Source of the DNA: a virus | DNA length: 34,833 nucleotides | Direction: 5' to 3' (one strand) | Virus record (IMG/VR): IMGVR_UViG_3300027386_000003 | In this document: one piece after another, positions 4,540-27,274 of the stretch | Layout of the letters: the number at the start of each line of letters is the position of its first letter | How positions within the stretch are numbered: the first letter of the stretch is position 1 | Translations under genes and position numbers: made by a program | The notes under the pieces: generated by a model | The model's input: the letters and a program-made list of their open reading frames with translations, nothing else | Told to the model about the DNA's origin: nothing | The model's database searches: none

Positions 4540-6032
4540 TAGGAACCTCTCTCAAGCTGCTCCAGTCTATCAATCTCCTGCTGTAGCTGCGTAAGCTCGG
4601 AGGATTCTTCTGGAGTCAATCCTGTTCCAGCCCCAGGCCCTAAGTCCGCCGCAAAGTCGACCACTTCCTCAGTATCGGACTTGAAGCGACTCAAAGGATT
4701 AGCGATAAAGTCCTGCTCGGTCGGAACCGTGATTCCCTGATCCAGGAAGTATTGCCGCCGGCGAATGGTCGCGTCAATCTCGGCCTGCGCTCCCTCGAGC
4801 TTGGACATGAACTCGGTCGGGCCGTCACGAGACGGGTCAGGAATGGCCTTGCGGATACGGTCCGCCTCTTTCTCTGACATCTGTGCGCCGGTGATCTCCT
4901 TGATATACCGGTTCATCGCATCGTAGGAAGATCGTTTCCAGGTCGAAAAGTCGGACAGCTCTTTCCGGGACTCTTTCGACAGCGTGGCTCCGGCCTTCTC
5001 CTGCAAATCCAGAGTGGTCAATCTGATTTTGCCTGGGATAGTCAGATACTCCGGCTTCACAGTCTCCCGGATCTCCGCAAACTTGGCGGCAGAGTCGGCC
5101 AGCCCAATCACCTTCGTCTGTTCCTTGCCTTTAACAGATGCCTCCAGGCTGGTCTCTGGAGCAAACGTCCAGCCCTTTGTAGTGAGATCATCCGCCTGTG
5201 CCTGCGTGGTCACTGCGCGGACTTCCCCATCCGGGGACACCATGTTCCGTCCCTCCTTCAATCGGGCCGGGGCTTCTGCGGGCAGCTCCAATTCAGGTCT
5301 TACCAATTCCGAAGTTCCGTCAGGATTCAAGAAATACTTGCGGCCGTCCGCCAGCTGCACGATCTTTCTATCAGCGCTACCCGGTTTCTTTTCCACCAGC
5401 TTCACAAGCTCTGCCTGCCTCTGCTCAGGAGTCATGGCCTCCAGAAGCTTCGGATCGTATCCGCCCTGCGTATGCAGAATATCCGCAATCGCTTGCTGTT
5501 TCTGCAAGGTCTCTGCCTTGCGCTCCGCTCGGCGAGTCCCTTCCTTGCCTTTCAGGGCTTCCATATCCTTGGCCTGCTTCCAGTGCATCAGTCCGCCCGC
5601 TATGAGGCCTCCAATGCCGCCGGTCTGGAGATTCTGCAATCCAGCCCCCCTGCTCTCCAATGACTTTCTCTCCTGCACAAGAGCATCCACTAGCGGATCT
5701 CCTGTAGAGCCGGGCGCGATCACCGGGCCTGTGGGGGATGCGCCCGGAGCTGCCGGTGCCGTGCCTGCGGGAATCGTTCCTGGGCCGACACTGACCATCG
5801 GGCCAGCTGGAGTCGATACCGGGGCCGCCGGGGCTACTGTGCCTCCCGGCATTGGTGCAGAACTGCCCGGAAGGGACGCCATGATTGAAGCAAGCCCTGG
5901 CATGGGGCCTGCGAACCCTCCTGTGGAGATCGGCAACCCTCCTGCTCCAGCCATCGGGGAAGGCCCCATGGGGGAACGCATAGCGGGATACGGCAATCCC
6001 ACTGGACCTGCGGCTGTATTCAGGACTGGCAT
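4539..6032 (-). CDS. Internal virion / ejection-protein-like protein (497 aa) with a 110-aa Pro/Gly/Ala-rich N-terminus
   Basis: ATG 6032 overlaps the end of the upstream gene. The call rests on composition and gene position only. Confidence 0.5.
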   Translation of the reverse strand: MPVLNTAAGPVGLPYPAMRSPMGPSPMAGAGGLPISTGGFAGPMPGLASIMASLPGSSAPMPGGTVAPAAPVSTPAGPMVSVGPGTIPAGTAPAAPGASPTGPVIAPGSTGDPLVDALVQERKSLESRGAGLQNLQTGGIGGLIAGGLMHWKQAKDMEALKGKEGTRRAERKAETLQKQQAIADILHTQGGYDPKLLEAMTPEQRQAELVKLVEKKPGSADRKIVQLADGRKYFLNPDGTSELVRPELELPAEAPARLKEGRNMVSPDGEVRAVTTQAQADDLTTKGWTFAPETSLEASVKGKEQTKVIGLADSAAKFAEIRETVKPEYLTIPGKIRLTTLDLQEKAGATLSKESRKELSDFSTWKRSSYDAMNRYIKEITGAQMSEKEADRIRKAIPDPSRDGPTEFMSKLEGAQAEIDATIRRRQYFLDQGITVPTEQDFIANPLSRFKSDTEEVVDFAADLGPGAGTGLTPEESSELTQLQQEIDRLEQLERGS

Positions 6033-7228
6033 GGAATCACCTTCGAGTAGTCCACTGCGAGCCAGCGCCCGATCCGCTTCACTGCGTCAGGCATGACCTT
6101 GGCCACTTCCTGAGCCATCACTCCCAGCCTCTCCGGGCCGCCCCAGATGTACTTGAAGCGATAGACATTCAGCCCGTTGCTCATTCTGCCCACCTTGCGG
6201 ACCTTCTCTTTCAGTCTCGCATCGGAGAGTATGAACGGCGCGGCCGCCATAACTGTATTCTGGAAGTTCTGCATTCCCTGGTTGTACTGATTCAGGCGAT
6301 TCGCGTAGTTGCTCTGAACCATTCCGGTAATGTCCGGGGCCTGCATATTGTACTGCGGGGTCTGGTGGAACTGCGGCATGGTCGGATTCTGCACAGTGGC
6401 GAGAATACTGGCCAGCTCATTGAATGGTTGCTGTCTCTGCGTCAGCAATTCGTCTCTGGACATTCCACGCATGGCCATCTGCTCCCTCAATCTGCGGGAG
6501 GCTTCATCGCCGGCGAACTGACTGGCCTGCATTCGCTGGTTGAATAGCCTCTGCTGGTCGCCGGCCTGGAACTGAGATCCGGCCAAGCCCTCGCCGAACT
6601 GTCGGGCGGCTTCTCCTGCCTCGAATCCGGCCACGCCCATTTCCTCTCCGAACCTCTGTCCTCGGAGTGCCGATGCGAGCCTGGTCAGGCGATCCTGCTC
6701 GGCGCGTCCTGCGCCCACCGAGGACAGGGCCAGATTCTCCAGCGCGTCTCCGCGCTCTCTGCCATACCTGTCCATTTCCCGTTCATAAGCTTCACTGCCT
6801 AGTGCGATTCCCCGATTCGCCAGCATCGAGGCCAGCTGATTCTCCCGGTCCTCGAATTGCGGACTCAGGCGATTGAATCCTCGGTCATAGGTGGCCTGCT
6901 CGAGCGAGTCCCCCATGCCCTGGAACTGGCCAGCAGTCGGCATATCCGGCAAAGCGCCCAGATCCGGCGCTTGCACAGGCCCAGATGAAGTCGGCGCGTT
7001 GACTGCCGCGCCTCTCCCCATGCTGGCCAGATCCGCCGGGTTCATCCAAGACCCTTGAATTTCAGGCAAGCCGCCAAAGTCCAAAGGCTTACCCCATTGA
7101 TCTCCCAGCTGCTTCAGCGTTCCCTGCGTCGCTGAGCTGGCTCCGGGAGTCTGCGTGGTCGTCTGCTTGAATGGCGTATCCGCCTTCTTGGGCGGGGTAA
7201 TCTGCAAGCTGGTATCCGTTACGGCCAT
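6020..7228 (-). CDS. Fiber/needle-like protein with a C-terminal intramolecular chaperone auto-processing domain (Peptidase_S74)
   Basis: The C-terminal 68 aa are SDARLKEKVRKVGRMSNGLNVYRFKYIWGGPERLGVMAQEVAKVMPDAVKRIGRWLAVDYSKV. They match the S74 pattern SDxRLKxxI...FxYK...GxxAQEVxxxxPxxV...VDY. Confidence 0.75.
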   Translation of the reverse strand: MAVTDTSLQITPPKKADTPFKQTTTQTPGASSATQGTLKQLGDQWGKPLDFGGLPEIQGSWMNPADLASMGRGAAVNAPTSSGPVQAPDLGALPDMPTAGQFQGMGDSLEQATYDRGFNRLSPQFEDRENQLASMLANRGIALGSEAYEREMDRYGRERGDALENLALSSVGAGRAEQDRLTRLASALRGQRFGEEMGVAGFEAGEAARQFGEGLAGSQFQAGDQQRLFNQRMQASQFAGDEASRRLREQMAMRGMSRDELLTQRQQPFNELASILATVQNPTMPQFHQTPQYNMQAPDITGMVQSNYANRLNQYNQGMQNFQNTVMAAAPFILSDARLKEKVRKVGRMSNGLNVYRFKYIWGGPERLGVMAQEVAKVMPDAVKRIGRWLAVDYSKVIPCQS

Positions 7229-7229
7229 A

Positions 7230-7907
7230 TCAATACCCTCCCTTGCCGAACACTCGCCTGACCGGCTGTTTCGTAACCGGCTGTCTCACAACAGGCTGCG
7301 GCACCACCACCACAGGCTGTTTCGGTGCCGTCTGTTTCGGAGTTCTCTGAGGCACCACCACGGGCTGCCTGTATTGTCCCCCTTTCTGATACCGGATTCT
7401 ATCCAATTCAGCCTGCCTCTGTTGGGGAGTCATAACCACACCGCCGCCACCTTTCGCATAAAAAGTACGGGTCTGGACAGGCTGCTTCACCACTGGAGTC
7501 TGGGCTACGGGTTTCTGGACTGCCGGAATCTGGGGCATGGGCCTCTTGGCAACCTCCCTGGATACCCTTGCGCCCGTTACCCCTGTCTGCGGGAAGAATC
7601 TAGCCGATTCCAAAGGCGTGGTGCGCCCGGTCAGCAAGAGATTCAAGAGACCAGAACGAATCTGCCTGCCTTGATCCAATGCGCCTTGGTCAGCAGGATC
7701 AAGGGCTGTGTGCATCGTCCGTTCAGGACTGCCGATTTCTCCCGTATACTGAATCGTGCCGAAAGGAGTTTGCTGACCGATCTGACTATGCAGGGCCTGC
7801 TCTCGAACCGCCTCTTTATTGATAGCGGCCTGCGCCTGCGCCGTTTGTGTGGGGTCAGGCGTAGAAGGCTTGCTTCCCCCTCCAAAAATTTTGCTGACGA
7901 ACCCCAA
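7230..7907 (-). CDS. Internal virion-protein-like protein (225 aa) with QPV-rich C-terminal repeats
   Basis: A TTG start at 7907 is preceded by AGGAG with a 6-nt spacer. The N-terminus is MGFVSKIFGGG. The region PVAQTPVVKQPVQ...KQPVVVVPQPVVRQPVTKQPV is low complexity. Confidence 0.55.
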   Translation of the reverse strand: MGFVSKIFGGGSKPSTPDPTQTAQAQAAINKEAVREQALHSQIGQQTPFGTIQYTGEIGSPERTMHTALDPADQGALDQGRQIRSGLLNLLLTGRTTPLESARFFPQTGVTGARVSREVAKRPMPQIPAVQKPVAQTPVVKQPVQTRTFYAKGGGGVVMTPQQRQAELDRIRYQKGGQYRQPVVVPQRTPKQTAPKQPVVVVPQPVVRQPVTKQPVRRVFGKGGY

Positions 7908-7964: not shown

Positions 7965-8810
7965 TCATTGACAGGTGGACTCAGCCAGTTCGCATAAACC
8001 CGAAAATTCACTAATGTCCTCAGCCACCTCCGCCGCCAGCAAACACCGCTCCAGCCCCATGCCGTAATCAATGGAACGCTCAGGCCAAACCACAGGAATC
8101 TCAACGCCTCTGCACTTCAAATCGTCCGAATCCAGGTTATGCTCATAAATATTCGCAATTTCCATTGGCATTTTCTCGTTCCTGCGAAAGTTGTAGACCT
8201 CGCAACGCTTTCCGGTACGGGATTCTGTCGGTGCGTATGGGTGAGCAGGCATATTCTCCAGCACCAGCAACCGGTGCGGTCCTCCGGGAATCAAATCGAA
8301 ACAGGACAATGCGGAGTCCAGACGAAGCAGGTAATCGCCCTCTTCCTGCTTCACTTCCGGGATAATGTCCAGCTTCTCCCCTCTGAAGCAGACCGGATCT
8401 CCCACTTCCACAGACCGACTTTCATCCCGGCCTTTCTCGGCGCACTCGTTGAAGTCGTATTTCAGGATTTCCAGATCCTTTCTCTCCAGGCCTGCCAAGA
8501 GACTGTATAGGCGAAGCACCTCCTCCAGCGCGGATGCAACCGTCGGCCCCACCCGTCCTGCGCCTTTCCACCTGCGGGCGCACTCGACCATCGTAAATTC
8601 TTCCAAGTGCCTGGGAATATTGTCCGCTCCCCTTCTCCGGCATCTGCCGATTGTCCATACATCGTTGCCCTCGTATCTATCCTGATACAGAGCACGCTCA
8701 TTGCAGTATTCGGGCTCATCCAGGCCTTTTACCTGAATCGCCGCATAATCGGATTGAAAGTGAAAATTCAATCTCTTTATCACGGATTCTGCAAGTTCCT
8801 TCAGCTCCAT
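7965..8810 (-). CDS. Stand-alone class IIb aminoacyl-tRNA-synthetase catalytic-core paralog (LysRS / EpmA(PoxA,GenX)-like), 281 aa
   Basis: The conserved blocks appear in the correct order. EPEY is at aa 32-35. Motif 2 is WTIGRCRRRGADNIPRHLEEFTMVEC (compare FRNE...RHNPEFTMLE). LVLENMPAHPYAP corresponds to fItEYPaevSPLA. EVYNF..MEIANIYEHNLD corresponds to FEffigGrEiaNGFsELnD. Motif 3 is SIDYGMGLERCLL. There is no anticodon-binding domain. Confidence 0.7.
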   Translation of the reverse strand: MELKELAESVIKRLNFHFQSDYAAIQVKGLDEPEYCNERALYQDRYEGNDVWTIGRCRRRGADNIPRHLEEFTMVECARRWKGAGRVGPTVASALEEVLRLYSLLAGLERKDLEILKYDFNECAEKGRDESRSVEVGDPVCFRGEKLDIIPEVKQEEGDYLLRLDSALSCFDLIPGGPHRLLVLENMPAHPYAPTESRTGKRCEVYNFRRNEKMPMEIANIYEHNLDSDDLKCRGVEIPVVWPERSIDYGMGLERCLLAAEVAEDISEFSGLCELAESTCQ

Positions 8811-9238
8811 TTTCCCTCCCTAAATTCGTTGTCCAGCATGGAGTAAATCAAAACATCGGAAGCCCCATCATAGGCCCTGCGGATAATTCCCTCCTTCCTG
8901 AAGCCCAGACGCTCATTGATGCGCTTCGCCCTGTCGTAGTCCCGCTTCACCACCGACTGCAGGCGATTCACCCCCATCTCGTCGAAAGGGAAGGAAAGTA
9001 TGCTTTTTATGATTCTCCGGTTCAGCCAATACGGGGTACTGGAGGCCACTGTAATCTCCACCCAGCTCCCGTATTCGAGTTCCGTGTACGAGTGGTAGAC
9101 GATTCCAGCGACCATCTTCCCGTCCCGGCATATCGCGTTCGTCCAGCACGGTTTCAGGTCGTCCGGCTTGCAGTTGCCCAGTCTTGCGGCAATGAACTCG
9201 AGGACTTCGTCCGAATCGACCTTGCAGAAGTCGATCAT
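8801..9238 (-). CDS. GNAT-family N-acetyltransferase (RimJ/RimL-like)
   Basis: GVNRLQSVVKRDYDRAKRINERLGFRKEGIIRRAYDGASDVLIYSMLDNEF is the typical GNAT C-terminal half. An ATGA overlap couples the gene to the hub gene, and a 10-nt overlap couples it to the aaRS-like gene. Confidence 0.75.
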   Translation of the reverse strand: MIDFCKVDSDEVLEFIAARLGNCKPDDLKPCWTNAICRDGKMVAGIVYHSYTELEYGSWVEITVASSTPYWLNRRIIKSILSFPFDEMGVNRLQSVVKRDYDRAKRINERLGFRKEGIIRRAYDGASDVLIYSMLDNEFREGKWS

Positions 9239-10797
9239 GCCTGCGGGCTAAGCACAGAGCCCTTGGACTGGTCATACAACACATCACTTGAGAAAAACGA
9301 AACCTGGTCTCCAGAGGATAAAGCCGCTATCTGAATGGAGATCGCCGAACCATACAAATTGACAAGCCTCCACCCTGCATAACGCACAGCACCAGCGCCC
9401 CACTGGAACGAGTCCCACTCGCCAATATCCCAGGGAGTCCCTGATTCCTGCGAGGGCAACCCAATTGGGTCTATTGGAGACAGGTTGAAGTCCATGTTCG
9501 CCCCAATACTGACGCTGCTTCCTCCCCCAGATTCAAGATGACTGCGAAGAGCCGTAATTCTCTTATCGTAAGGACTCCGAAGAAAATTGTACGCAGTCCT
9601 CAATTCAGCAGCAACCGGCTCTCCAGCATCGGCAGTTCCCTGGTCGGCCTGCATCACCCGACCATCCGAAGTGCCGAAATAAAGCCCGTCATTGAAATTC
9701 TCCCAGCACTGGGCATCCATGCCGGTAAAGCGGCACCAGGCCCCGGTTTGGGAGTTCATAACGTGTTGGATTGCCCGATTCCCTGAAATAGGAACATTGA
9801 ACAACAGCCAATTCGCTTTCGGATAGAGAATGCCTCCCCAGCCCGGATCGTTTCCTCTATTCCGAATCTGCTCGGTGGCCGCCTCTGAAATGGTATCGGA
9901 CAATGCCAGCTGCCGTCGGGCCCTGCCGTACTTCAGGAATTGAAGCAGGGGAATGTATCCGTCCTGTGTAATGGCGATCAAGTCGGCCCCCAAGTCCACT
10001 AAAGGGGTATCTCCAACAACTCGGCCCACATGAAACCGTCCGGTAATCGACCAGGCAGACGCGTCGGATGGGTCCAGGCCGGAATAAACCAGCACGTCCC
10101 CGGACTCCGTGAATATCGCCAGCATATCGTCCGGGCCGTCTCCGCCATCCAGCGTCAGCGTCCCCAAAGCCAGGATATTGCCGCCCTGCCCATGTACCAG
10201 AGACAGGTCGATTTTCTCCAAGGGGCCTCTCACTGCGTCAATTCCCGCATACCAGATATTCGGAGTCCCTTTCTCTGCAAAAAACAGTCGGTGCTTGAAA
10301 GGCAGGACCTGAAACAGGCGAGAAGGCGTAAGCCCCTCTCCCTCGAATCCATGAGGCGTCCAATTCCCGTCCGCGTCGATTCTCAAAGGATCATCCACGC
10401 CATTCACCAGGATTCCATTCCTGCCGAAATTCGCGCCTCTCCAGCGCACATCGGTCAGGCCGGAAACAATAGCCCCTCCAGCCGGGCCTGCTCCAGAAAC
10501 ATCATAAATTCCATTCCCGGCCGCGGCGAACAACTTGCTGTTGGTTCCGGACCTCCAGTTGAACAGGGTGCCGACATTCCCTGTCGGCAGCTCGGTGACG
10601 TGAGGCACAAATCCCCTACGGGTAGTGACTCGCCCAAGCTCGGGAAAGAAGTTGTCCAGCTGGAGGGCAAATTCCGGGCTCATATTGCTCTCGGCGTCCC
10701 GGGTGTTCCAGCCGCCCACCGGGGCCTGCATGATTCCACGCAAGCCCTTGCCCATTGCTGGCAAGCCGCGCACTCGATAGTCTTGTGAAAGTTCCAT
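9235..10797 (-). CDS. Tail hub protein, P22 gp10-like (520 aa)
   Basis: The start was re-derived to ATG 10797 (MELSQDY...), 8 nt after the upstream stop. The track start at 11028 would overlap the upstream gene by 220 nt. GLPAMGKGL near the N-terminus and the repeated beta-rich blocks resemble my recollection of P22 gp10. The profile match is unverified. Confidence 0.5.
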   Translation of the reverse strand: MELSQDYRVRGLPAMGKGLRGIMQAPVGGWNTRDAESNMSPEFALQLDNFFPELGRVTTRRGFVPHVTELPTGNVGTLFNWRSGTNSKLFAAAGNGIYDVSGAGPAGGAIVSGLTDVRWRGANFGRNGILVNGVDDPLRIDADGNWTPHGFEGEGLTPSRLFQVLPFKHRLFFAEKGTPNIWYAGIDAVRGPLEKIDLSLVHGQGGNILALGTLTLDGGDGPDDMLAIFTESGDVLVYSGLDPSDASAWSITGRFHVGRVVGDTPLVDLGADLIAITQDGYIPLLQFLKYGRARRQLALSDTISEAATEQIRNRGNDPGWGGILYPKANWLLFNVPISGNRAIQHVMNSQTGAWCRFTGMDAQCWENFNDGLYFGTSDGRVMQADQGTADAGEPVAAELRTAYNFLRSPYDKRITALRSHLESGGGSSVSIGANMDFNLSPIDPIGLPSQESGTPWDIGEWDSFQWGAGAVRYAGWRLVNLYGSAISIQIAALSSGDQVSFFSSDVLYDQSKGSVLSPQA

Positions 10798-10804
10798 TAT
10801 TGCC

Positions 10805-11626
10805 TCAGAAACCGATTCTCCACAAGCGGTCAGGATCTTCACCAACCACATAAACAGAATCGGAGTGTACGGCCCCTCCCTTAGGATCGTCCAGAGTGTC
10901 AGGGAACTCAATAACCTGACCGAATTGCCCACTGGTGTCGCTAGGATTCGACAAATTGATTCGCCACAGACCAGGCTTGATTCTGAAACCAGGCCCAGCC
11001 GAACCGCCATCCACAAGATATAAGGCACCAGAGTACGAGATTAGCCCCTCTGTATTTCTCGCTCTCGCAGGAAGATCACCGACTCTCCCAAACGCACCAC
11101 TAGTATCGCCAGGATTTGCCGGGTTGATATTCCAAAGGCCTCCACTACTACCGCGTGCGGCAAGATATAAATTGCCTCCATGCGAGACCACGCCTCCGCC
11201 TGCACTAATATCCGCTAAAGAAGGAAGCCTTCCTATCTGCCCAAACGAGCCGCTTTCGTCGCCAGGATTTGCCGGATTGATTAGATACAAAGTATTGGAA
11301 TCTGCCCCATAAAGAGATCCAGCGTGTGAGGCAATCCCTCTAATACCTTGTAGGTCCCTAGAAAATACCCCTACTTGCCCAAATGAGCCGCTTTCGTCGC
11401 TAGGATTTGCTGGGTTGATGTTCCACAATGAAAAATTGGCTCTGTTAACAATATAGAGATTACCTCCATGCGAGGTCATTCCCTCAGGCAGAGACAATGC
11501 CGAGGGCAACGCCGCAGATATAGTACCTTTTGGAAAAACCTCCAAATTGCCCAGGTACACTTTATCCGCTTCCGTGCTCCCCACATAAATCTTGGAGATT
11601 CCCGTATTGCCGACTGCTATGGGCAT
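10805..11626 (-). CDS. Tail-associated repeat protein with five ~47-aa repeats (beta-propeller-like)
   Basis: ATG 11626 is preceded by GGAGG. The repeat unit is SHGGNLY...LWNINPANPxDxSGxFGxxGxxP, present five times. The DNA-level periodicity of about 140-150 bp is visible at 10942, 11110, 11262 and 11400. Confidence 0.7.
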   Translation of the reverse strand: MPIAVGNTGISKIYVGSTEADKVYLGNLEVFPKGTISAALPSALSLPEGMTSHGGNLYIVNRANFSLWNINPANPSDESGSFGQVGVFSRDLQGIRGIASHAGSLYGADSNTLYLINPANPGDESGSFGQIGRLPSLADISAGGGVVSHGGNLYLAARGSSGGLWNINPANPGDTSGAFGRVGDLPARARNTEGLISYSGALYLVDGGSAGPGFRIKPGLWRINLSNPSDTSGQFGQVIEFPDTLDDPKGGAVHSDSVYVVGEDPDRLWRIGF

Positions 11627-11637
11627 GGTGTCCTCCG

Positions 11638-12441
11638 TCAGCCGGTAATGATGTAGACGGTTGAATTATCCTTGCTGGAAATAGCATCGTATTGCGCTTG
11701 CGTTCCTCTCCAGAGACTCAGTCCGTCCACCTGGGCCGCATTCACGTCCAGCGACGGAGTGCCGGACAGGCCATTCAGCAAGTTCCGTATCTCGGTCCCT
11801 GTCTGGTCTCGCGTGGCGTTGTCCTCGATTCCGTCCAGCTTGGATTCATCCGCATCAGTGAAGGGGTTCTCCACCTCAGAAACTTCGGCAGTGACGTTCG
11901 ACCTGAACTCCTGTCCGTTGTAGACCACCACAAGATACCTGCCGGGCGTGATCTCGCCTGGAGCAATCGGCGTCCCGTTGGCTCGCACTAAAGGTACGGC
12001 AGCCCTGGAGGACAATACTATATTTACAGCGCGTGTATTTGTTTCCTTGGCAAAAAAGGTGTAGGTCAATCCAGGCGTCAGCGTTATCGGAGCAGGAGAA
12101 ACTGTCAGGGCAATAACATCGCCCGTTCCCCCAACATCAGAGGCTTGAATAAAGTCTCCCGAGGATTGATCTCGAACCTGGGCAAGCGTGGCGTATTGAT
12201 TATCCTCTGTTGCCTCGCCGCAATTCAGGAGTTTGAATCCTGACATTGGAAGGTCCTGAATAGGCGCGGTCTGCCCATCTCGGGTCAGGCAATTCTCAAG
12301 TCCGTCTGCCAAGTCGTTATCGTGCGTATCCGAATCAGCGGCATTTACCAGTGCTCCCGCATCACGGGCCTGCGCCCATACGTCCCGCCCCCTTCTGCTT
12401 CCGTCCGTCCGGTTGAATGTTCCAGATCCGTCCCAGGCCAT
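11638..12441 (-). CDS. Tail fiber protein (267 aa) with a conserved fiber N-terminal domain
   Basis: ATG 12441 is preceded by GGAGG with a 5-nt spacer; the track start at 12453 is a TTG. MAWDGSGTF...[22 protein letters not shown]...DNQYATLAQV is paralogous to the N-terminus of the 862-aa fiber. Confidence 0.75.
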   Translation of the reverse strand: MAWDGSGTFNRTDGSRRGRDVWAQARDAGALVNAADSDTHDNDLADGLENCLTRDGQTAPIQDLPMSGFKLLNCGEATEDNQYATLAQVRDQSSGDFIQASDVGGTGDVIALTVSPAPITLTPGLTYTFFAKETNTRAVNIVLSSRAAVPLVRANGTPIAPGEITPGRYLVVVYNGQEFRSNVTAEVSEVENPFTDADESKLDGIEDNATRDQTGTEIRNLLNGLSGTPSLDVNAAQVDGLSLWRGTQAQYDAISSKDNSTVYIITG

Positions 12442-12487
12442 ATCCGCCTCCAATTCAGGTGATACAGCTCCATTCTAAACCAGAAAA

Positions 12488-14539: not shown

Positions 14540-14689
14540 ATGGCACACAGAAACGTCATTTCCCTCCGCCTCAGCGACCGGCTGAAGAAGGCCGTCGCCG
14601 AATATTCGGAGAAGTCCGGGCTGTCGGCGAACAAGGTCATCCGGCTGGCCCTGTACAAGTTCCTCGGCATCGAGGAAGAATCCCGATGA
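14540..14689 (+). CDS. Ribbon-helix-helix (CopG/Arc-like) regulator, 49 aa; absent from the ORF track because it is under 60 aa
   Basis: Manual translation gives MAHRNVISLRLSDRLKKAVAEYSEKSGLSANKVIRLALYKFLGIEEESR, a textbook RHH. An ATGA overlap couples it to the next ORF. Confidence 0.75.
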   Translation: MAHRNVISLRLSDRLKKAVAEYSEKSGLSANKVIRLALYKFLGIEEESR

Positions 14690-14787
14690 ATTTCACACCC
14701 AGATCGCCCTGGTCGCATTTCAGTCCACCGCCGCTAGAATCCTCCAGCGGTCCTTCTCGGGTGCGACCAGCGGCGTTACACGCATGA
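14686..14787 (+). CDS. Micro-ORF (33 aa, Pro/Ser-rich), coupled by ATGA at both ends
   Basis: The product is MNFTPRSPWSHFSPPPLESSSGPSRVRPAALHA. The start overlaps the RHH stop and the stop overlaps the next ATG. Confidence 0.35.
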   Translation: MNFTPRSPWSHFSPPPLESSSGPSRVRPAALHA

Positions 14788-14924
14788 ACGAGTTCGATAG
14801 AGAACACCGCTTCGCCCATCTAGGCAGCGACTCGGATTGTCCGGCCTGCGGGGTCGAAATGGAAGCACTGGAGGATGGGCAGGTCTGCCCGTCCTGTCTT
14901 TACGCCACTCCGGAGGAAGAATGA
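14784..14924 (+). CDS. Zinc-ribbon mini-protein (46 aa)
   Basis: The product is MNEFDREHRFAHLGSDSDCPACGVEMEALEDGQVCPSCLYATPEEE, with CPxC-N15-CPxC. Confidence 0.55.
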   Translation: MNEFDREHRFAHLGSDSDCPACGVEMEALEDGQVCPSCLYATPEEE

Positions 14925-14928
14925 ACCG

Positions 14929-15120
14929 ATGACCATCAGCAGATTTGACGAACTGAAAATCACCCGCCTCCCCACCGAGGAAGAGCTCAACTACAGGGAC
15001 ATAGCGGCCGCAGGAGAAGTCCTGTCCATCAATGCCCTGGAGCGATACCTGGTGGATCTGGAGAGGCGGATCAAACGTCTTGAGAAAGCCGCCGCCGAAC
15101 ACGGGCTCACGCACCGATGA
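14929..15120 (+). CDS. Hypothetical coiled-coil protein (63 aa), paralogous to 15629..15832
   Basis: ATG 14929 (MTISRFDEL...) follows the zinc-ribbon stop. Its C-terminus LERYLVDLERRIKRLEKAAAEH resembles LEALLRSVDDRIESLEKETHRE in the paralog. Confidence 0.55.
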   Translation: MTISRFDELKITRLPTEEELNYRDIAAAGEVLSINALERYLVDLERRIKRLEKAAAEHGLTHR

Positions 15121-15632
15121 ACCGCATTACCTCTGTCCGGCATATCGAGCCCTGGCTGGAGACACTGGAGCGCGTCTGCTCAAAAGGAGCGGACGCTCAG
15201 GGCCAGGGAATGGCCTGGTACTTCCGGCCTTTCGACTACGACCATATTGCCAAGTCCATTGTTATCTGCATGAACAATGAGGGACAGGAATCTGGCCATT
15301 TCTGGATCTGGAATGAAAACGGGTGCCTGTGGGGCTGCGTCATAAAGGACCTGTTTACCCCTAATTTCCGGTTTCTTCATGAGCTGCTTTTGCGGGTTGA
15401 TCCAACGGTCAAAGGAGCGACTCGTCCATTGAGAGATGAAGCGGCCCGAATTGCCGGTATGGAGTACGGGGCCAATATTCACTATGCGGTCAATGTTCAT
15501 CTGACGCGGCCCGGACTCTCCCCTGAGAAGGAATCCGAAGTGATGATCGAGAGACAGGGCTACAGCCCTCTATCCATGGTCTGGGTCAGGGGAATCAATG
15601 GAGATGCCCCACAGGAGAAATCAAGCGGATGA
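15117..15632 (+). CDS. Hypothetical protein (171 aa), possibly a GNAT-like fold
   Basis: ATGA coupling is present at both ends. LHELLLRVDPTVKGATRPLRDEAARIA...MIERQGYSPL weakly resembles GNAT motif A/B. The resemblance is not decisive. Confidence 0.6.
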   Translation: MNRITSVRHIEPWLETLERVCSKGADAQGQGMAWYFRPFDYDHIAKSIVICMNNEGQESGHFWIWNENGCLWGCVIKDLFTPNFRFLHELLLRVDPTVKGATRPLRDEAARIAGMEYGANIHYAVNVHLTRPGLSPEKESEVMIERQGYSPLSMVWVRGINGDAPQEKSSG

Positions 15633-15832
15633 ACGACCATCAGCTCTCGTTCAAAGACCGGCTTGCCTTGGCGATCCGGCTGGCCCAGAACGGAGAAACC
15701 GTTGTCAACCAGAGCCATAGTGGAAGAATGGTGCTGGACTTGAGCTGGCTGGAAGCCCTGTTGCGTTCGGTGGACGACCGAATAGAATCATTGGAAAAGG
15801 AGACTCATCGTGAACAAGAGACAAATGATTGA
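15629..15832 (+). CDS. Hypothetical coiled-coil protein (67 aa)
   Basis: ATGA overlap with the upstream gene. It is a paralog of 14929..15120. Confidence 0.55.
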   Translation: MNDHQLSFKDRLALAIRLAQNGETVVNQSHSGRMVLDLSWLEALLRSVDDRIESLEKETHREQETND

Positions 15833-16094
15833 TCGGGTGACTGGCTGGGACTGTATTGAAATGAGATTCCCAGAAAGCTACACTCTTTACGGAGTACACA
15901 CGCACACGAAGCCTCTGGATCTGGTGCGATCTGGTTTCATTCGCCGGCGAGACCGAAAGAATCTGGTTCGATTCGCTTTTGAGTTCCAGGAGAATGCCAG
16001 AAGAACCCATATTCAGCAGTCTTTGATGGCGCAGGCTCTTAAACCTTACAAGGGCTATTATGATGGGCAACTTCCAAGAATGGGGCTGTATTGA
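15810..16094 (+). CDS. Hypothetical protein (94 aa)
   Basis: A GTG start is preceded by AAGGAG with a 7-nt spacer. Confidence 0.5.
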   Translation: MNKRQMIDRVTGWDCIEMRFPESYTLYGVHTHTKPLDLVRSGFIRRRDRKNLVRFAFEFQENARRTHIQQSLMAQALKPYKGYYDGQLPRMGLY

Positions 16095-16097
16095 GAC

Positions 16098-16352
16098 ATG
16101 AAAATCCGATTCATGCAGACAGGGAACAAGGGCCGCTGGGGAGTCGTCGCCGGCCGTTCCCCTCTGCTATTCGACGGCGCTCCGGTATTCGTCCATGCGA
16201 CCCGATACGGCCCGCATCGCCGCTTCTACTGCAATTTCTGCGGGGAGTTCCAGGGACGGCGTCTGAAGGACGTGGGGAACGAGATCAGGAACCGAATATT
16301 CAAAATGAGAAAACCCAAAAAGGAGGGAAACCGTGCTATTGATTCTATCTAA
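16098..16352 (+). CDS. Hypothetical basic protein (84 aa)
   Basis: ATG 16098 lies 4 nt after the upstream stop. The C-terminus is basic. Confidence 0.5.
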   Translation: MKIRFMQTGNKGRWGVVAGRSPLLFDGAPVFVHATRYGPHRRFYCNFCGEFQGRRLKDVGNEIRNRIFKMRKPKKEGNRAIDSI

Positions 16353-16563
16353 TGCGGAGACTGGGGAGATTCTCTTGCGAATTGAGAATTATGATGGGGC
16401 TCTGCCTGCTATAGAAGATTCCTTGGTGGTGGAGAATATGTCTTTATCGGATAACGCCAGCCCGACCCAAACGGTCGCTATGTCCGCGGCTCGAGTTGTC
16501 TTTAGACAGTTTTCTATAATCAGGGGCCTTGAATCCGTACAATTAGGGCTGAAGCCTCTTTGA
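16333..16563 (+). CDS. Hypothetical protein (76 aa)
   Basis: A GTG start is preceded by AGGAGG with a 6-nt spacer. Confidence 0.5.
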   Translation: MLLILSNAETGEILLRIENYDGALPAIEDSLVVENMSLSDNASPTQTVAMSAARVVFRQFSIIRGLESVQLGLKPL

Positions 16564-16568
16564 AACCC

Positions 16569-16883
16569 ATGAGAACTTTCCTCCGCGCCAAGATTCACGG
16601 CGCAATCGTCACTGGCATTCAGCCCGACTATGAGGGGTCAATCGCGCTCGGCCCTGAACTGATGCACCAGGTCGGAATCAAGAAATACGAGCAGGTCTAT
16701 ATCTACAATCCCAGGACCGGCTCGGTGCATACCACCTATGCCCTCAAGGGAGAACCCGGCATGGTGGAGGGCAGAGGCGCTTCGGCCCGTCGCATGGAGA
16801 TCGGGGATTCCCTGATTATTTGCTGCTACGGGCAATACCCGGATGAAGGGCCTTTTCCGAAACCCAGTCAAATCGTTCTTTAG
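16569..16883 (+). CDS. panD: Aspartate 1-decarboxylase (PanD)-like pyruvoyl-dependent decarboxylase, 104 aa
   Basis: MRTFLRAKIHGAIVTGIQPDYEGSIALG aligns with E. coli PanD [29 protein letters not shown]. This covers Lys9, His11, Tyr22 and the Gly24-Ser25 self-cleavage site. The TTY (Thr57/Tyr58) and GDxxII blocks are also conserved. ATG 16569 is preferred over the TTG at 16560. Confidence 0.75.
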   Translation: MRTFLRAKIHGAIVTGIQPDYEGSIALGPELMHQVGIKKYEQVYIYNPRTGSVHTTYALKGEPGMVEGRGASARRMEIGDSLIICCYGQYPDEGPFPKPSQIVL

Positions 16884-16887
16884 GATC

Positions 16888-16961
16888 TGGTTGCGAGAGC
16901 AGGAATCGAACCTGCGGTGCTGGAACATGAAACCAGCGTGTTGCCACTACACCATCTCGCT
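16888..16961 (-). tRNA. tRNA with anticodon CAU (Met, fMet or Ile2 type) and an encoded CCA end
   Basis: The reverse complement folds as a cloverleaf. The acceptor is AGCGAGA/TCTCGCA with an A1-A72 mismatch. The D arm is GTGT-AGTGGCA-ACAC. The anticodon arm is CTGGT-TTCATGT-TCCAG. The T arm is GCAGG-TTCGATT-CCTGC. The 3' end is ACCA. Confidence 0.8.
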
Positions 16962-20203: not shown

Positions 20204-21043
20204 TCAGCCCTCCTGAGCTCGCTGGTGCGCCTCGGTGCGCTCTTTCGTGGTGATGTCAGGCATTCCTGCATGACGGCGTAAGGGGCGCACCCACGGCATC
20301 CTACGGCGGATTGTGCGCCGTCCTGTGTAGGTTCTCGTTGCGTCCACGATCTTGTCCATCCGGGTCGGAGGGGGCGGGGGCGGTTCGCCGCCTTCCAGCC
20401 TCCAAAGTACGTCCGCGATGCGGTCCCATGTGATTCCAAGATGCGTCAGTTCCTCCGCCTCGGCTGCCGACATGGGCGGATTCAGCGGTGAAACAGGCGG
20501 GCGGGATGCGTGGCCTCTCTTCGTCTCGACGACGCCGAGTGCGGCCAGCACACGCCGAAAGCGGTTCACGTATTCCTCGCCCTTGTCCGTGCAGGTGCAG
20601 TAGTACCGAACACGGCTCACGAGATAGGGGAACTCGCCCGGTGTCGCTTCGACTACCGGACTGTAATAGTGCTCCGGCCCGGCCATGTCGTCATAGTACG
20701 CTTCCACCCGTGCAGGCCCGTCTCCGTAGAGCTGCGCCTCTCTTGTGTCGTTCGGCTGATAATCGCCGTGATAATACCAATTTCCGCCGGGTGCCTTTTC
20801 GGACACCCAGAATCCGGCGGGCTTGAGCTGGTCGAACGTCTCCGGCGGCTCCCAAAGCAGTGTGCGTCCGATTCTCCAGACCTTCGCCGGCGGACGGCGC
20901 AGTGCCTTGATACGCGCTCGCTCGGCTTCCTTGTCCAGCCCTTTCCGGCGGGATTCCTCCTGCATCCGGGCTTCCTGGTCTGCCATGAACTTCGCCCGCC
21001 ATGCTTTCAGGCGGGCGATCTGGCGCTTCATCGCTTCGGTCAT
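20204..21043 (-). CDS. Hypothetical protein (279 aa) of the GC-rich cassette, containing a PPPPPP tract
   Basis: ATG 21043 is preceded by GAGGGA with a 6-nt spacer, 2 nt after the upstream stop. I recognised no family. Confidence 0.6.
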   Translation of the reverse strand: MTEAMKRQIARLKAWRAKFMADQEARMQEESRRKGLDKEAERARIKALRRPPAKVWRIGRTLLWEPPETFDQLKPAGFWVSEKAPGGNWYYHGDYQPNDTREAQLYGDGPARVEAYYDDMAGPEHYYSPVVEATPGEFPYLVSRVRYYCTCTDKGEEYVNRFRRVLAALGVVETKRGHASRPPVSPLNPPMSAAEAEELTHLGITWDRIADVLWRLEGGEPPPPPPTRMDKIVDATRTYTGRRTIRRRMPWVRPLRRHAGMPDITTKERTEAHQRAQEG

Positions 21044-21045
21044 TT

Positions 21046-21906
21046 TCAGTCCCTCAGCACGTCGATCTTCTGGTAGTTGACGTTGTCGAAGATGGCCGTC
21101 CACCGGAGCGGCTGCATATCCCGCTCCGGAGCCACGGCAACGATCTCGTTGTGACTCAGAGGATTGTCCACGAACTTGTCCGCCAAGTCCCGGTCCAGCG
21201 GGGCTTCGCCGCGAAGCACCATCATCAGTTCCTCAAGCGAGTTCCAGCTGTACAGCAGGGTTTCGTTATCGTAAATCTCGATCTGATGCTCGAACTTCGG
21301 CGTGACCTCTGCCGTGCGGCTGACTTTCGCCAGCGACCGCTCGGCAATGTACTTGCCGTGGAACGGCCCGGTGATGTGGATATTTCGCTTCACCGTGTCG
21401 GTGTGCGTATCGGAGCTGCCCCAGTCCCGGCCGTACTTCGCGCTGATCTCCGCGCTGAATTTCGCGCCGCCGTAGAATCCGCCTGCGGTTCCGGCCGCGT
21501 ATCCAAACTCCGCTTCCACAGCGACCTTCGCGCCCACTTCCATGCTCTCCTTGAGGCTGGTGGTGCGGCTGAACGTATGCTCCACCACTTCATCGTAGGT
21601 TGCGCCCGAGGCCACGTTGATTCGGGATTCGGCGCGTTCACCTACATCTTCGGAGATTACGACAGTCGGGCCGAACTTGGCTTCGTCCGTCGCCGTCATC
21701 TGGAGATTCTTGAGCAGGATGCGGCCGGTCTTGTGGTGCGGTCGCTTGTACTCGATGGTGGTGTCGTCGATCAGGTAGCCGCCGAGCCAGTCGGTCAGCG
21801 AAAAGGCCCACCACGGGCTTGACGAATTGTGGACGTGATCGGTGCGTTGCAGTGCGAAGGTGCAGGCAATCGCCGTTCTCCGCATCAGTGTGTTCGCAAG
21901 ATTCAT
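21046..21906 (-). CDS. Hypothetical protein (286 aa) with an aerolysin-like amphipathic beta-hairpin; possible pore-forming or membrane-inserting protein
   Basis: ATG 21906 is preceded by AGGAG; the track start at 21957 is a TTG. VGAKVAVEAEF-GYAAGTAGGFYGG-AKFSAEISAKY shows strict hydrophobic/polar alternation around a Gly-rich turn. Confidence 0.6.
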   Translation of the reverse strand: MNLANTLMRRTAIACTFALQRTDHVHNSSSPWWAFSLTDWLGGYLIDDTTIEYKRPHHKTGRILLKNLQMTATDEAKFGPTVVISEDVGERAESRINVASGATYDEVVEHTFSRTTSLKESMEVGAKVAVEAEFGYAAGTAGGFYGGAKFSAEISAKYGRDWGSSDTHTDTVKRNIHITGPFHGKYIAERSLAKVSRTAEVTPKFEHQIEIYDNETLLYSWNSLEELMMVLRGEAPLDRDLADKFVDNPLSHNEIVAVAPERDMQPLRWTAIFDNVNYQKIDVLRD

Positions 21907-24685: not shown

Positions 24686-27274
24686 TCATGCAGCGCGAGC
24701 AATCAGATTGTCCCCGCTACGGGTGGTGAGGCGATCTCCGCCTCGTGTCGTCAGGTATAGGACATCGGCAACCGGCGGCGCTTCTGCCGTCCCCATGACC
24801 AGCGTGGCATAGTTGAATCCGGAGACTCTGCCTGCCGCCGATATGGTCTTGGTGGCCGCATCGTAATTGATTCGATTGTCTCTGTCCCTGCCGTATCCGG
24901 TGAAGTCCTGCGCGAATGCCTCAGTGGGCAACATATGGGAGCTTTCAACACCACTCCCTCCAGTAACCCCCACAAACAGGAACAGGAAGTCCTCGTAATC
25001 GTCCGGCAGGACGAAACTGGTTGCGGTGCTGGCCAGATCCCACGCGAGAATCTCTCGTGATGGGGAACCTCCAGCCATTCCCGGAGCGCCTGCGTCTCCC
25101 TTCGGACCTGGCGGTCCTCCAGGGTCTCCCGGGTCTCCCTTTGCTCCCGGAACTCCTGGATCTCCCTTTGGGCCGATAGGACCTGGTGATCCGTCCGTGC
25201 CGTTACTTCCGTCCGCACCAGGAGCGCCTGCGTCTCCCTTGAGTCCCTGAATCCCTTGTGCGCCCGGATCTCCCTTTGCTCCCGGAGCGCCTGTGTCTCC
25301 TTGTACGCCCTGTGCGCCCTGAGGGCCCTGAGGGCCTTCTGGGCCTGGATTTCCCTTAGGACCTGGTGATCCGTCCGTGCCGTTACTTCCGTCCGCACCA
25401 GGAGCGCCCTGTGCGCCCTGAGGGCCTTCTGGGCCTGGATTTCCCGGAGATCCTTTATCCCCATCATCCCCATCGGAACCAGGAGCTCCAATATCGCCTT
25501 TCGGGCCTTGATTCCCTCTGGGGCCTGCGTCTCCCGTATCCCCTTTCAATCCCTGCGGACCTTGCGGGCCTGGCCCGCCTTGTGGGCCTGTGCCTCCATG
25601 ACGTCCGCGTTCTCCCTGTGGGCCTGGATCGCCTTTCTGGCCTGTCTCTCCTTGAATGCCCTGAGTGCCTTCTGGGCCTTCCGCTCCTCCCTGGAGTTGG
25701 TATAGAGAAACATCGGCAGTAGTTTCAAGTCTGTTTCTGGCTCGCACCAGCAAAGTCCCACTGGCGGATCTTCCATATCCCAATCTTGGGGAACTTCCAA
25801 GAAACAGAACCTGCGTATCATCATTAGGGCCTGTTGTGGTCGCTACTCTTTGATTCAAGAGCTCCGATGCTCGAAAAAATAGAAAATCGTCCTGGGCGGT
25901 ATCACTGAGCTGCCCGGTAATATCGGCAAAATTCTGTTTGATTGCCCAAACTTCTCCGTTCTCCCCAGATGGGAGCGGGATTCCAGTATCCCTGAACCAG
26001 AACTCCGTCCTGTCTTGTGTCGGTGCAGCCAGGTCATAAGTATCCCCGATTTGCTTCAAGCTCGCTGGGCCTGACCCTTCCACTCCTTTGGGACCTTGTG
26101 GGCCTTGTGGGCCCGCAGGCCCTGGGCCTCCCTCCGGCCCTATGTCTCCTTGCGGGCCTGCAGGCCCGGTATCTCCCGTGTCTCCCTGCGGGCCAATATC
26201 TCCCTTGACTCCCTGTTGGCCTCGCTCTCCCCTTTCCCCTCTGTCTCCCTTGCTTCCTTTCAATCCCTGAGGGCCTGTGTTTCCCGTGTCTCCTTTCGGG
26301 CCTTGAGCTCCGTCATGGCCAGAGGGCCCTCTGTCTCCGGGTATGCCCTGAGGGCCTGTGTTTCCGGTATCCCCTTTCGGGCCTGCTTCTCCCTGAATGC
26401 CTTGCGGGCCGGTATCGCCTTTCAATCCCTGAGGGCCTGTGTCTCCCGTGCCTCCTTTCGGGCCTTGGCCTCCAGTATCGCCTTTCGGGCCTTGCGGGCC
26501 GATATGCCCGCGTTCTCCCTGCGGGCCTTGGAGCCCAGCAGGGCCTTGATCGCCTTTCAGGCCTTGCGGGCCGACGTCTCCGGTATCCCCTTTCGAGCCT
26601 TGAACTCCGCGCACTCCGACAACGACAGCCAGATAGACCTCCAGCGTGGAATCGGACGGGAGCTCGTCCCCCTTTCCAAAAGGAGATAAAGTCGATCTGC
26701 CGCCATGGGTAACAGCATACGAAACATTCAATAATCCCGGTCCGAAGCTGAGACCCGCATGAGAAAAGGTAAGATTCTCACGTGCAGTAAAACTTGATCC
26801 GGCCCCAAGTCCCCAGGGAACGAACGAGGTGTCTTTCTCGACACCTGCCACCTTTGCAACCAGAAAGAACCCTATGACTTTATCGGAAGGGGGATTGTTT
26901 GGAACTCTCAGCCCTGCGTAAGTGGTTTGAAAATCACGACTAAACCCCGAAGGAATGCCGGTCTCCAATTCGAGGCTGAGCCCTCTATTATTTCTAGTAT
27001 AAACCCCGCTATATGCCGCCGTGGGGAGAGTGAGAGTGCCGATTTTCTGGCCTCTGGCAGAGCTCGATCCGCCGCCTTCATCCTGAAGCTGGCCATAGGT
27101 GGCGTATTGATCGCGCTCGGTGGCCTCTGCGACTCCCGTATGCTTGTGACCATCCATTGGAAGGTCGGCAGTCGGGCTATTCTGCCCGTCACGAGTCAAA
27201 CAGTTTTCCAGCCCTTCCTCGAGCTCGAAAGGAACTTTCGCTTTAGGGAAATTCCCTTCGCCGTCCCAAGCCAT
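24686..27274 (-). CDS. Collagen-like tail fiber (862 aa)
   Basis: The N-terminus MAWDGEGNF...[22 protein letters not shown]...DQYATYGQL is the conserved fiber N-domain. Two long Gly-X-Y blocks lie at about 26075-26617 and 25067-25690. Confidence 0.85.

Follow-up and report, generated by a model that had tools for sequence, protein, structure and literature searches.

Why would a phage carry, among its tail genes, the catalytic core of an aminoacyl-tRNA synthetase and no anticodon-binding domain? This question is raised by X281, a gene of IMG/VR record IMGVR_UViG_3300027386_000003. The stretch analyzed (34,833 nucleotides, hereafter the window) represents an essentially complete phage genome of about 35 kb. 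The results presented here show that X281 is a genuine stand-alone class IIb aminoacyl-tRNA-synthetase catalytic core. The nearest large family is that of EpmA (also called GenX), a LysRS paralogue that attaches beta-lysine to EF-P in a tRNA-independent reaction and whose natural and preferred substrate is a beta-amino acid. We tentatively propose that X281 would be an EpmA-like, tRNA-independent ligase of beta-alanine or a related acid, partnered by two proteins encoded elsewhere in the window, the orphan protein P171 and a PanD-type aspartate decarboxylase. This composite reading, drawn from sequence comparisons, is plausible and falls somewhat short of probable.

7965..8810, minus strand: X281, 281-aa stand-alone class IIb aminoacyl-tRNA-synthetase-like catalytic core; open reading frame (ORF) with an ATG start, between the internal virion protein A (IVP-A) gene and an IVP-B-like gene.

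An initial annotation of this DNA had described the product as a minimal EpmA/LysRS-like class II core on the strength of a series of catalytic blocks. All of them are present in the 281-aa translation in the order reported: EPEY, RCRRRGADNIPRHLEEFTMVEC, LENMPAHPYAP, EVYNF...MEIANIYEHNLD and GMGLERCLL. Searches with X281 alone gave nothing significant in Pfam, PHROGs, NCBIfam or the PDB, with sub-threshold motif-2 similarity to PylRS, AsnRS and EpmA models, and a word-indexed search of 5.8 billion clusters retrieved only X281 itself. An exhaustive phmmer search of 1.84 billion representatives yielded three distant relatives at E 4e-12 to 1e-7.

P0002: relative of X281, 424 aa.
P0003: relative of X281, 486 aa, with two tandem cores.
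P0004: relative of X281, 289 aa.

With X281, these proteins make up a family of four clusters among about 15 billion proteins, and no member was met outside phage or tail-fibre-flanked contigs. Megablast and tblastn against 50,697 phage records (INPHARED) gave no match for X281, P0002, P0004 or a second, 267-aa core encoded on L009, one of the relatives' contigs. No further relatives were obtained by scanning IMG/VR with the family alignment. The degenerate pattern ExANxYxHNx[DN] hit 0, 47 and 25 loci in metagenome/genome collections, and all of these were negative with the family hidden Markov model (HMM).

Profile and structure comparisons gave significant matches to class II synthetases, as the initial annotation had anticipated. 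The relative P0003 passed Pfam tRNA-synt_2d at 2.5e-12. When the four-protein family profile was compared with the PDB, PylRS catalytic domains were matched at E 5e-9, PheRS at 2.9e-4 and LysRS at 1.2e-3, and the E. coli/Salmonella GenX/EpmA structures at E 8e-5 to 2.7e-4; the GenX/EpmA matches run from motif 2 to motif 3 (profile positions 53-263). A search of the 5.8-billion database with this profile added only bacterial EpmA-type PF00152 proteins of about 280-330 aa, one of which (P0005, 3G1Z-like at E 4e-61) is encoded beside EF-P.

An AlphaFold model of X281, built on a 22-sequence alignment, reached a predicted local distance difference test score (pLDDT) of 80.4 and a predicted template-modelling score (pTM) of 0.84; the single-sequence model, with a pLDDT of only 33, was unusable. 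In a Foldseek search with the alignment-based model, the 50 best PDB matches were all AspRS, LysRS, AsnRS or GenX (E 1e-9 to 5e-8, probability 1.0). In the viral structure library BFVD, giant-virus synthetases were clear matches, together with two weak unnamed ones, and no phage analogue of the X281 structure was found. As X281 has no match in PHROGs or INPHARED either, the earlier remark that no phage counterpart has been described still holds. The affinity to class IIb, with EpmA and LysRS as nearest neighbours, and the absence of an anticodon-binding domain were likewise confirmed: both catalytic arginines are kept, and the catalytic core takes up all 281 aa. Judged by its sequence, X281 is not an EpmA orthologue; it comes from a very small family whose architecture is reduced and whose amino-acid pocket is remodelled. 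Neither PHROGs, INPHARED, BFVD nor the literature searched describes this family, its compact build, its confinement to phage or tail-fibre-flanked contigs or its link with P171 and PanD; core-only class II paralogues as a kind are already known.

The active site of X281 retains the EpmA-conserved residues R59 (motif 2), H68, F72, E76, P188, R202, D227 and R234, as well as E204, E217 and N220, which form the acidic/Asn Mg-ATP cluster of class IIb. H68 and F72 belong to the H-x-x-E-F-T-M-x-E block; H68 is an Asp in P0004. In motif 3, the family alignment shows no variation at G250, G252, E254 and R255. R59, F72, G252 and R255 are invariant in 18 bacterial EpmAs too, where E254 is an Asp. R59 and R255, the arginines of motifs 2 and 3, are thus invariant across the family and not lost in the alignment. 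Moreover, the ATP/Mg positions are nearly all invariant among four to five members at 23-31% identity, which argues for selection on catalysis. The ATP site looks intact and under selection, and X281 is probably catalytically competent.

The amino-acid pocket is different. W97-Y98 of EpmA (P0005 numbering) is replaced by C77-A78 in X281, with A/I/A in the rest of the family. E234 of EpmA, in the same numbering, is replaced by H224, a His in three of the four family members (H/Q/H in the rest). These EpmA residues correspond to LysRS Tyr280 and Glu428, which hold the lysine epsilon-amino group. Since the lysine-pocket residues are replaced, the amino-acid pocket of X281 cannot be lysine-specific. 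In addition, EpmA K62 is replaced by the family-invariant E38. Two stretches are deleted relative to EpmA. The first follows the motif-1 strand columns and had been put at some 35 residues in the initial annotation; the deletion is real, and its size is about 28 residues (F14..P57 in EpmA against F18..P33 in X281). The second removes about 20 residues before motif 3, corresponding to a helical P-x-D-E...L segment. In the AlphaFold model, the N-terminus of X281 forms a helix (3-19) and a strand (23-27).

The putative partners of X281 are encoded at a distance of 6-8 kb, on the opposite strand:

15117..15632, plus strand: P171, orphan 171-aa protein; P171 family, candidate partner of X281.
16560..16883, plus strand: PanD-type aspartate 1-decarboxylase (beta-alanine-forming pyruvoyl enzyme); Pfam Asp_decarbox at 89 bits, cut-off 25.

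When the window was compared all against all with the three contigs carrying the relatives (L007, L008 and L009), exactly three families were in common: the core, the PanD-like gene and P171. P171 aligns over its full length to residues 261-422 of P0002, a C-terminal extension of the core (BLASTP E 3e-10). It also matches a 156-aa protein of L009 (P156, E 6e-8), the gene of which lies immediately after that of P0004. P171 is therefore fused to the core in one phage, adjacent to it in a second and co-present with it in a third, the window phage, where the two genes are 6.3 kb apart. This is a Rosetta-stone signature of functional coupling with X281, and the link spans phages that otherwise have no genes in common. 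A search of the 5.8 billion clusters with P171 returned only the window and L009 proteins, and one of the three P171-family members weakly matches an acetyltransferase PHROG (E 0.002).

A GNAT-like beta4-alpha3 pattern can be seen in P171 by eye only and is unconfirmed. The P171 family was rejected as a relative of the GNAT encoded next to X281, as hhalign against the GNAT profile gave a probability of 0.3%. Homology of the P0002 C-terminal extension and of P156 to the same GNAT was also rejected (E 1.8 and 1.2, respectively). P171 belongs to a rightward run of genes (14540-16883, plus strand), opposite to the rest of the genome, which begins with a 49-aa ribbon-helix-helix (RHH)/CopG-like regulator and also holds four ORFs of 67-94 aa without assignment and PanD.

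The PanD of the window matched PDB entries 3oug (6e-13) and E. coli 1ppy (9e-11), and its alignment to 1ppy shows that K9, H11, Y22, E23, G24-S25, T57 and Y58 are kept. The L009 homologue (10642-10977; 91 bits on Pfam) similarly keeps Lys9, His11, the Tyr-Glu-Gly-Ser self-processing site, Thr57 and Tyr58. Few phages have a PanD: it was found in 15 of the 50,697 records, several of them unannotated fragments, and at 18 IMG/VR loci. It is nevertheless present in both long contigs with a member of the X281 family (the window and L009), two genes away from the core in L009, and its presence in both by chance is unlikely. The sole tRNA gene of the window, a tRNA-Met (CAT), is at 16888-16961 on the minus strand; the PanD gene, on the other strand, stops 5 nt away.

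The surroundings of the relatives have further features in common. Each of the three genes immediately follows a fibre-like gene that has Pro-rich tracts, internally or at its end; the upstream gene ends in PPPPPPPPGPPPPKGK in L008 and has PTPPAP repeats in L009. A 3-His cupin (phrog_4786, 'cysteine dioxygenase', E 9e-16 to 3e-4) is encoded on each contig (L007 1882-2448, L008 2116-2775, L009 10968-11546). In L007 and L008 it comes directly after the synthetase-like gene; in L009 it follows P156 and PanD. In L008 and L009, 2-oxoglutarate-Fe(II) (2OG-Fe(II)) oxygenases of the prolyl-hydroxylase type are found beside PTPP- or polyPro-rich fibre genes. The cupins and oxygenases are possibly fibre-modifying enzymes; the all-against-all comparison found no homologue of either in the window phage. 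P0003 (L007 425-1885) joins in tandem a full core and a compact one without the insertion domain. The second core of L009 (11533-12336) is more EpmA-like and keeps the conserved ATP/Mg residues. The occurrence of two cores in relatives suggests a pseudo-heterodimer; the window phage has a single copy. No tRNA gene is present in L007 or L008.

These observations can be arranged in a pathway of three steps. PanD, whose enzyme identity is clear from its conserved residues, would produce beta-alanine from aspartate. X281 would bind ATP through motifs 2 and 3 and the Glu/Asn Mg site, and would adenylate a small carboxylate, with beta-alanine or another Asp-derived acid as the likeliest candidate. 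The simplest guess is beta-alanine, since EpmA has a preference for a beta-amino acid and PanD supplies one. The acyl group would then pass straight to an amine of a protein lysine or of a small molecule, tRNA-free as in EpmA, with P171 providing acceptor binding or transfer. Candidate acceptors are a host protein, a virion protein, a lipid and a metabolite. In its most complete form, in which PanD, the EpmA-like ligase and P171 together attach beta-alanine without tRNA to an acceptor in a protein or the envelope, the proposal is possible and rather doubtful. If true, it would describe a viral analogue of EpmB/EpmA beta-lysylation and a new phage-directed post-translational or surface modification.

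Several points weigh against an active EpmA-like ligase with these two partners. For the enzyme itself, the motif-2 Glu position is A62/G61 in X281 and unconserved across the family. Motif 1 is degenerate or partly deleted, with the 'EVET' columns gapped and the conserved Pro absent, so that dimerisation and activity can only be presumed. The alignment behind the AlphaFold model includes EpmA sequences, so that the model is biased to the EpmA fold and not fully independent. For the partners, P171 had no Pfam or PDB match that would assign it a fold. P171 and PanD, lying in an oppositely oriented run headed by an RHH regulator, may differ in timing from the late gene X281. The co-occurrence of P171, PanD and the core relies on two or three independent loci. 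None of the 18 PanD-carrying IMG/VR loci has an X281-like or P171-like ORF within 10 kb; PanD thus does not need the ligase and can occur alone. Finally, the window PanD has Val at the position of Arg54, which in E. coli PanD binds the distal carboxylate of the substrate, and Arg at the position of E. coli Asn72, and its substrate range may be altered by these changes; the L009 homologue keeps Arg54.

Among the alternatives, the one that survives best makes X281 an AsnA-type small-molecule amide synthetase, with the PanD product as amine and a dipeptide-like or pantothenate-like metabolite as product. AsnA (aspartate-ammonia ligase) is the other known core-only class IIb paralogue; it is AspRS-like and forms an amide via an acyl-adenylate, tRNA-free. 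The best fold matches of X281 include AspRS and AsnRS, and its relatives sit in small metabolic-looking clusters with PanD, the phrog_4786 cupin and the 2OG-Fe(II) oxygenase. However, neither the Pfam search nor the top 50 Foldseek matches contained an AsnA (PF03590) family or structure match, the window phage lacks the cupin and the oxygenase, and no transporter or additional biosynthetic genes accompany X281. We regard this alternative as unlikely.

A minimal tRNA-charging enzyme, recognizing the acceptor stem only and feeding P171 as a GNAT-fold aminoacyl-transferase, is quite unlikely. It has parallels in minihelix charging by PylRS and AlaRS and in the LysX, ErdS and Fem/Aat transferases. 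The best profile matches of the family are indeed anticodon-independent PylRS catalytic domains of 267-291 aa, the fusion of core and P171 resembles aaRS-transferase fusions, and the phage tRNA-Met adjoins PanD; the weak acetyltransferase PHROG match in the P171 family (E 0.002) points the same way. Yet the fold and C-terminal motifs of X281 are class IIb/EpmA-like and not class IIc, and P171 gave no GNAT fold match in the PDB, Pfam or hhalign searches. There is also no suppressor or unusual tRNA in the window, and L007 and L008 are tRNA-free. EpmA and AsnA, the known core-only class IIb paralogues, are tRNA-independent, which also counts against charging.

With EpmA as the nearest large family, a variant of the main proposal names the acceptor: X281 would attach beta-alanine or another acyl group to EF-P of the host, a viral counterpart of EpmB/EpmA that boosts translation of proline-rich fibres. 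PanD would supply a beta-amino acid, the type of substrate natural to EpmA. The genes upstream of the relatives have Pro-rich or polyproline ends (PPPPPPPPGPPPPKGK, PTPPAP), and the window has one ORF containing four PPP motifs besides a collagen-like fibre gene. We nonetheless find this very unlikely, given that the EpmA lysine-pocket residues and possibly the EF-P-contact surfaces are unconserved, that deletions have removed about 28 residues near the N-terminus and about 20 before motif 3, that X281 is a late gene and that the proline content of the window structural genes is unremarkable. It is equally improbable that X281 is a remnant that has lost catalysis and serves as a structural protein or decoy, for instance by binding a host factor or by being packaged as an internal protein. 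The lost motif-2 Glu, the degenerate motif 1, the large deletions, the internal virion protein gene surroundings and the extreme divergence behind the empty single-sequence searches would all fit such a remnant; the near invariance of the ATP/Mg positions at 23-31% identity, extending to the second L009 core, would not.

The last alternative concerns the genes around X281, and in particular the GNAT that overlaps it:

8801..9238, minus strand: GNAT-fold protein of 145 aa, IVP-A counterpart; phrog_4470 at E 6.5e-27.
9235..10797, minus strand: tubular-tail-B-like gene (the 'hub' of the initial annotation), ATGA-coupled to the GNAT gene; phrog_5107 at E 4.4e-93.
7230..7907, minus strand: 225-aa Pro/Gln/Val-rich protein in the IVP-B-like position; N-terminal part of phrog_6121 (virion structural protein).

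The gene junctions were found as first reported. X281 overlaps the GNAT gene by 10 nt (GNAT stop TGA at 8803-8801, X281 ATG at 8810-8808); its ATG lies inside the last GNAT codons and is preceded by a GGGAGGG Shine-Dalgarno sequence. At the ATGA junction, the GNAT ATG is at 9238-9236 and the TGA of the upstream gene at 9237-9235. The gene at 7230..7907 starts 57 nt past the X281 stop. No promoter-like or terminator-like signal above chance was detected between 12.6 and 7.0 kb, which makes it likely that X281 and the late genes on either side are transcribed together. The location of the two genes among tail and ejection genes is also correct, with the phrog_5107 gene upstream and phrog_6121 virion structural proteins downstream. 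The composition of X281 (GC content 0.53 and third-position GC content (GC3) 0.61, against a genome GC content of 0.56) shows no clear mark of recent transfer.

The RimJ/RimL-type identity of the GNAT was verified with a five-member family profile, which matched PDB GNAT structures at E ~1e-6; the single sequence scored 0.018 on Pfam, under the cut-off. A member of the family is carried by 111 phage records, which belong to phages of Brucella, Ralstonia, Burkholderia, Sulfitobacter, Rhizobium, Klebsiella and Pseudomonas. Three of them, Brucella phage Pr, Sulfitobacter phage pCB2047-C and Bradyrhizobium phage ppBjS10J-1, encode in succession a tail protein, the phrog_5107 protein, the GNAT and a virion structural protein, and no synthetase-like gene is present in the GNAT slot. 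The gene that directly follows the GNAT in these three phages is syntenic to 7230..7907; in ppBjS10J-1 it encodes a Gly/Ala/Gln-rich structural protein. Because the GNAT is directly followed by the structural gene in these related phages, X281 appears as an insertion between the IVP-A and the IVP-B-like genes, and it was not seen at this slot in any related phage examined. A small non-structural gene has been described between tubular tail B and IVP-B; its product is a homologue of T7 IVP-A and in most cases has an acetyltransferase fold, and an IVP-A-type gene is also present in P22 and epsilon15 (Hardies et al., PMC4819975). The window GNAT resembles T7 IVP-A (gp13) in slot, GNAT fold and small size, and by synteny and fold it is an ordinary member of this group.

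The GNAT is hence the ordinary IVP-A of a podovirus operon, a positional neighbour and not a dedicated partner of X281. The initial annotation had treated the synthetase core and the GNAT as a functional pair, which the co-occurrence survey does not support: the GNAT family is common without a synthetase, and the X281 relatives never adjoin it (the neighbour of the core in L009 compared to the window GNAT at E 1.2). A dedicated two-enzyme module of X281 and the GNAT, aminoacylating or acylating a virion or ejected protein, is accordingly highly improbable: the overlap, the common late operon with no internal promoter or terminator signal above chance and the place of X281 among internal-virion and ejection genes are opposed by 111 GNAT records with no X281 relative in the four neighbourhoods read or in whole-collection protein searches, by the syntenic identity of the GNAT as IVP-A (PMC4819975) and by the absence of the GNAT family beside the relatives in L007, L008 and L009. 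The analysis thereby corrects a tempting inference from gene adjacency. Identity of the GNAT with the Rac of phiKMV phages was ruled out by position, as the place of Rac is after the phage RNA polymerase gene and before the structural genes. Inspected by eye, the IVP-A GNAT family shows '...TPYWLNRR...' where the canonical Q/R-x-x-G-x-G/A acetyl-CoA loop is expected; with this loop missing, the protein may be a non-catalytic assembly factor.

The rest of the window is that of a phage with terminase, portal, major capsid, collagen-like fibre and holin genes. The annotated phages closest to it in capsid protein are Myxococcus phage Mx8, Bradyrhizobium phage ppBjS10J-1, Stenotrophomonas phage BUCT555 and the Brucella Tb/Pr group. 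The product of 9235..10797 has 520 aa according to the gene callers, with a longest ORF reaching 11028, and its tblastn matches are annotated as 'tubular tail B protein' (Sulfitobacter phage), 'amidase' or 'phage stabilization protein'. Just upstream of this gene, a 273-aa protein (10805-11626, minus strand) contains four to five '...NINPANPxDxSGxFGxxG...' repeats and has a weak DUF6923/beta-propeller match. Downstream of X281, the phrog_6121 profile is divided between two consecutive minus-strand ORFs: the 225-aa ORF (7230-7907) covers profile positions 7-53 and the 402-aa ORF (6020-7228) covers positions 97-388. At its C-terminus, the latter carries a Peptidase_S74 intramolecular-chaperone domain, as fibre and spike proteins typically do.

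The tail module (minus strand) falls into two parts. A phrog_6013 tail protein (27290-28042) and two fibre genes follow the head genes, and the tubular-tail-B-like and IVP genes (9235-12453) are found about 17 kb from the other tail genes, past the lysis and early regions. This order is not an assembly artefact, since the same order is found in independent contigs of other samples. The collagen-like tail fibre (862 aa, 24686-27274, minus strand) contains 22% Gly and has many collagen-like fibre PHROG matches. The ORF richest in polyproline genome-wide is one of 299 aa (20204-21103, minus strand), with nine PP and four PPP motifs and no family match.

Comparison with known systems places X281 closest to EpmA/GenX/PoxA (TIGR00462; PDB 3A5Y, 3A5Z and 3G1Z), which is likewise a core-only class IIb paralogue without an anticodon-binding domain. 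The two share the SPE-helix, R..HxxEFTMxE, xxP....P, ExY...ExAN.....D and GxGxER blocks, and X281 matches the EpmA-conserved ATP/Mg-site residues with the exception of the motif-2 Glu. In Foldseek, the X281 model matched the EpmA structure at E 1.5e-8, with a template-modelling (TM) score of about 0.5. On the other hand, X281 is about 40-45 residues shorter, without the hairpin past motif 1 and the helical P-x-D-E...L segment, has A78 and H224 in place of the lysine-pocket Tyr and Glu, and scores 13.0 bits on TIGR00462, far below the 286.9-bit cut-off. The genetic context differs as well: the X281 gene adjoins phage tail genes and has an orphan domain and PanD as its putative partners, whereas the EpmA gene adjoins efp/epmB and the partners of EpmA are EpmB and EpmC. 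Neither efp nor epmB is present in the window phage.

Like AsnA, X281 is a stand-alone class IIb core with a tie to aspartate chemistry, in its case through PanD; the residue mapped by eye to the specificity position is His in X281 and Arg in the Asp/Asn enzymes. LysX (LysRS-MprF) and ErdS (AspRS-DUF2156) keep the anticodon-binding domain and act through aminoacyl-tRNA, with a tandem-GNAT DUF2156 of about 300 aa. The relative P0002 resembles them in fusing a class IIb module to a second domain that presumably handles the acceptor; unlike the transferase part of ErdS/LysX, the P171 domain (~160 aa) has no DUF2156 match. The class IIc PylRS gave the best raw profile match (E 5e-9) and has a near-identical motif 2 (C-Y-R-x-E...HLEEFTM) and a comparable length (267-291 aa), but this match is limited to motifs 2 and 3, and the fold and the ExAN and xMPxxxxP blocks of X281 are those of class IIb. 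A PylRS-type/suppressor-tRNA or recoding system was ruled out, as the window contains only tRNA-Met(CAT) and the fold matches class IIb. A SerRS-like amino acid:carrier-protein ligase was also rejected: the neighbouring genes encode no carrier-protein domain and X281 has affinity to class IIb, not IIa.

Canonical LysRS, AspRS and AsnRS carry an N-terminal OB-fold anticodon-binding domain that X281 lacks, and X281 is the most stripped-down class IIb core among those compared. The characterised core-only class II paralogues comprise EpmA (EF-P beta-lysylation), AsnA, HisZ and the amino acid:carrier-protein ligases. Such paralogues are rare, and every characterised one has revealed unexpected chemistry. 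If active, X281 would add to them a new phage-encoded ligation or modification pathway and a minimal class II scaffold for adenylation.

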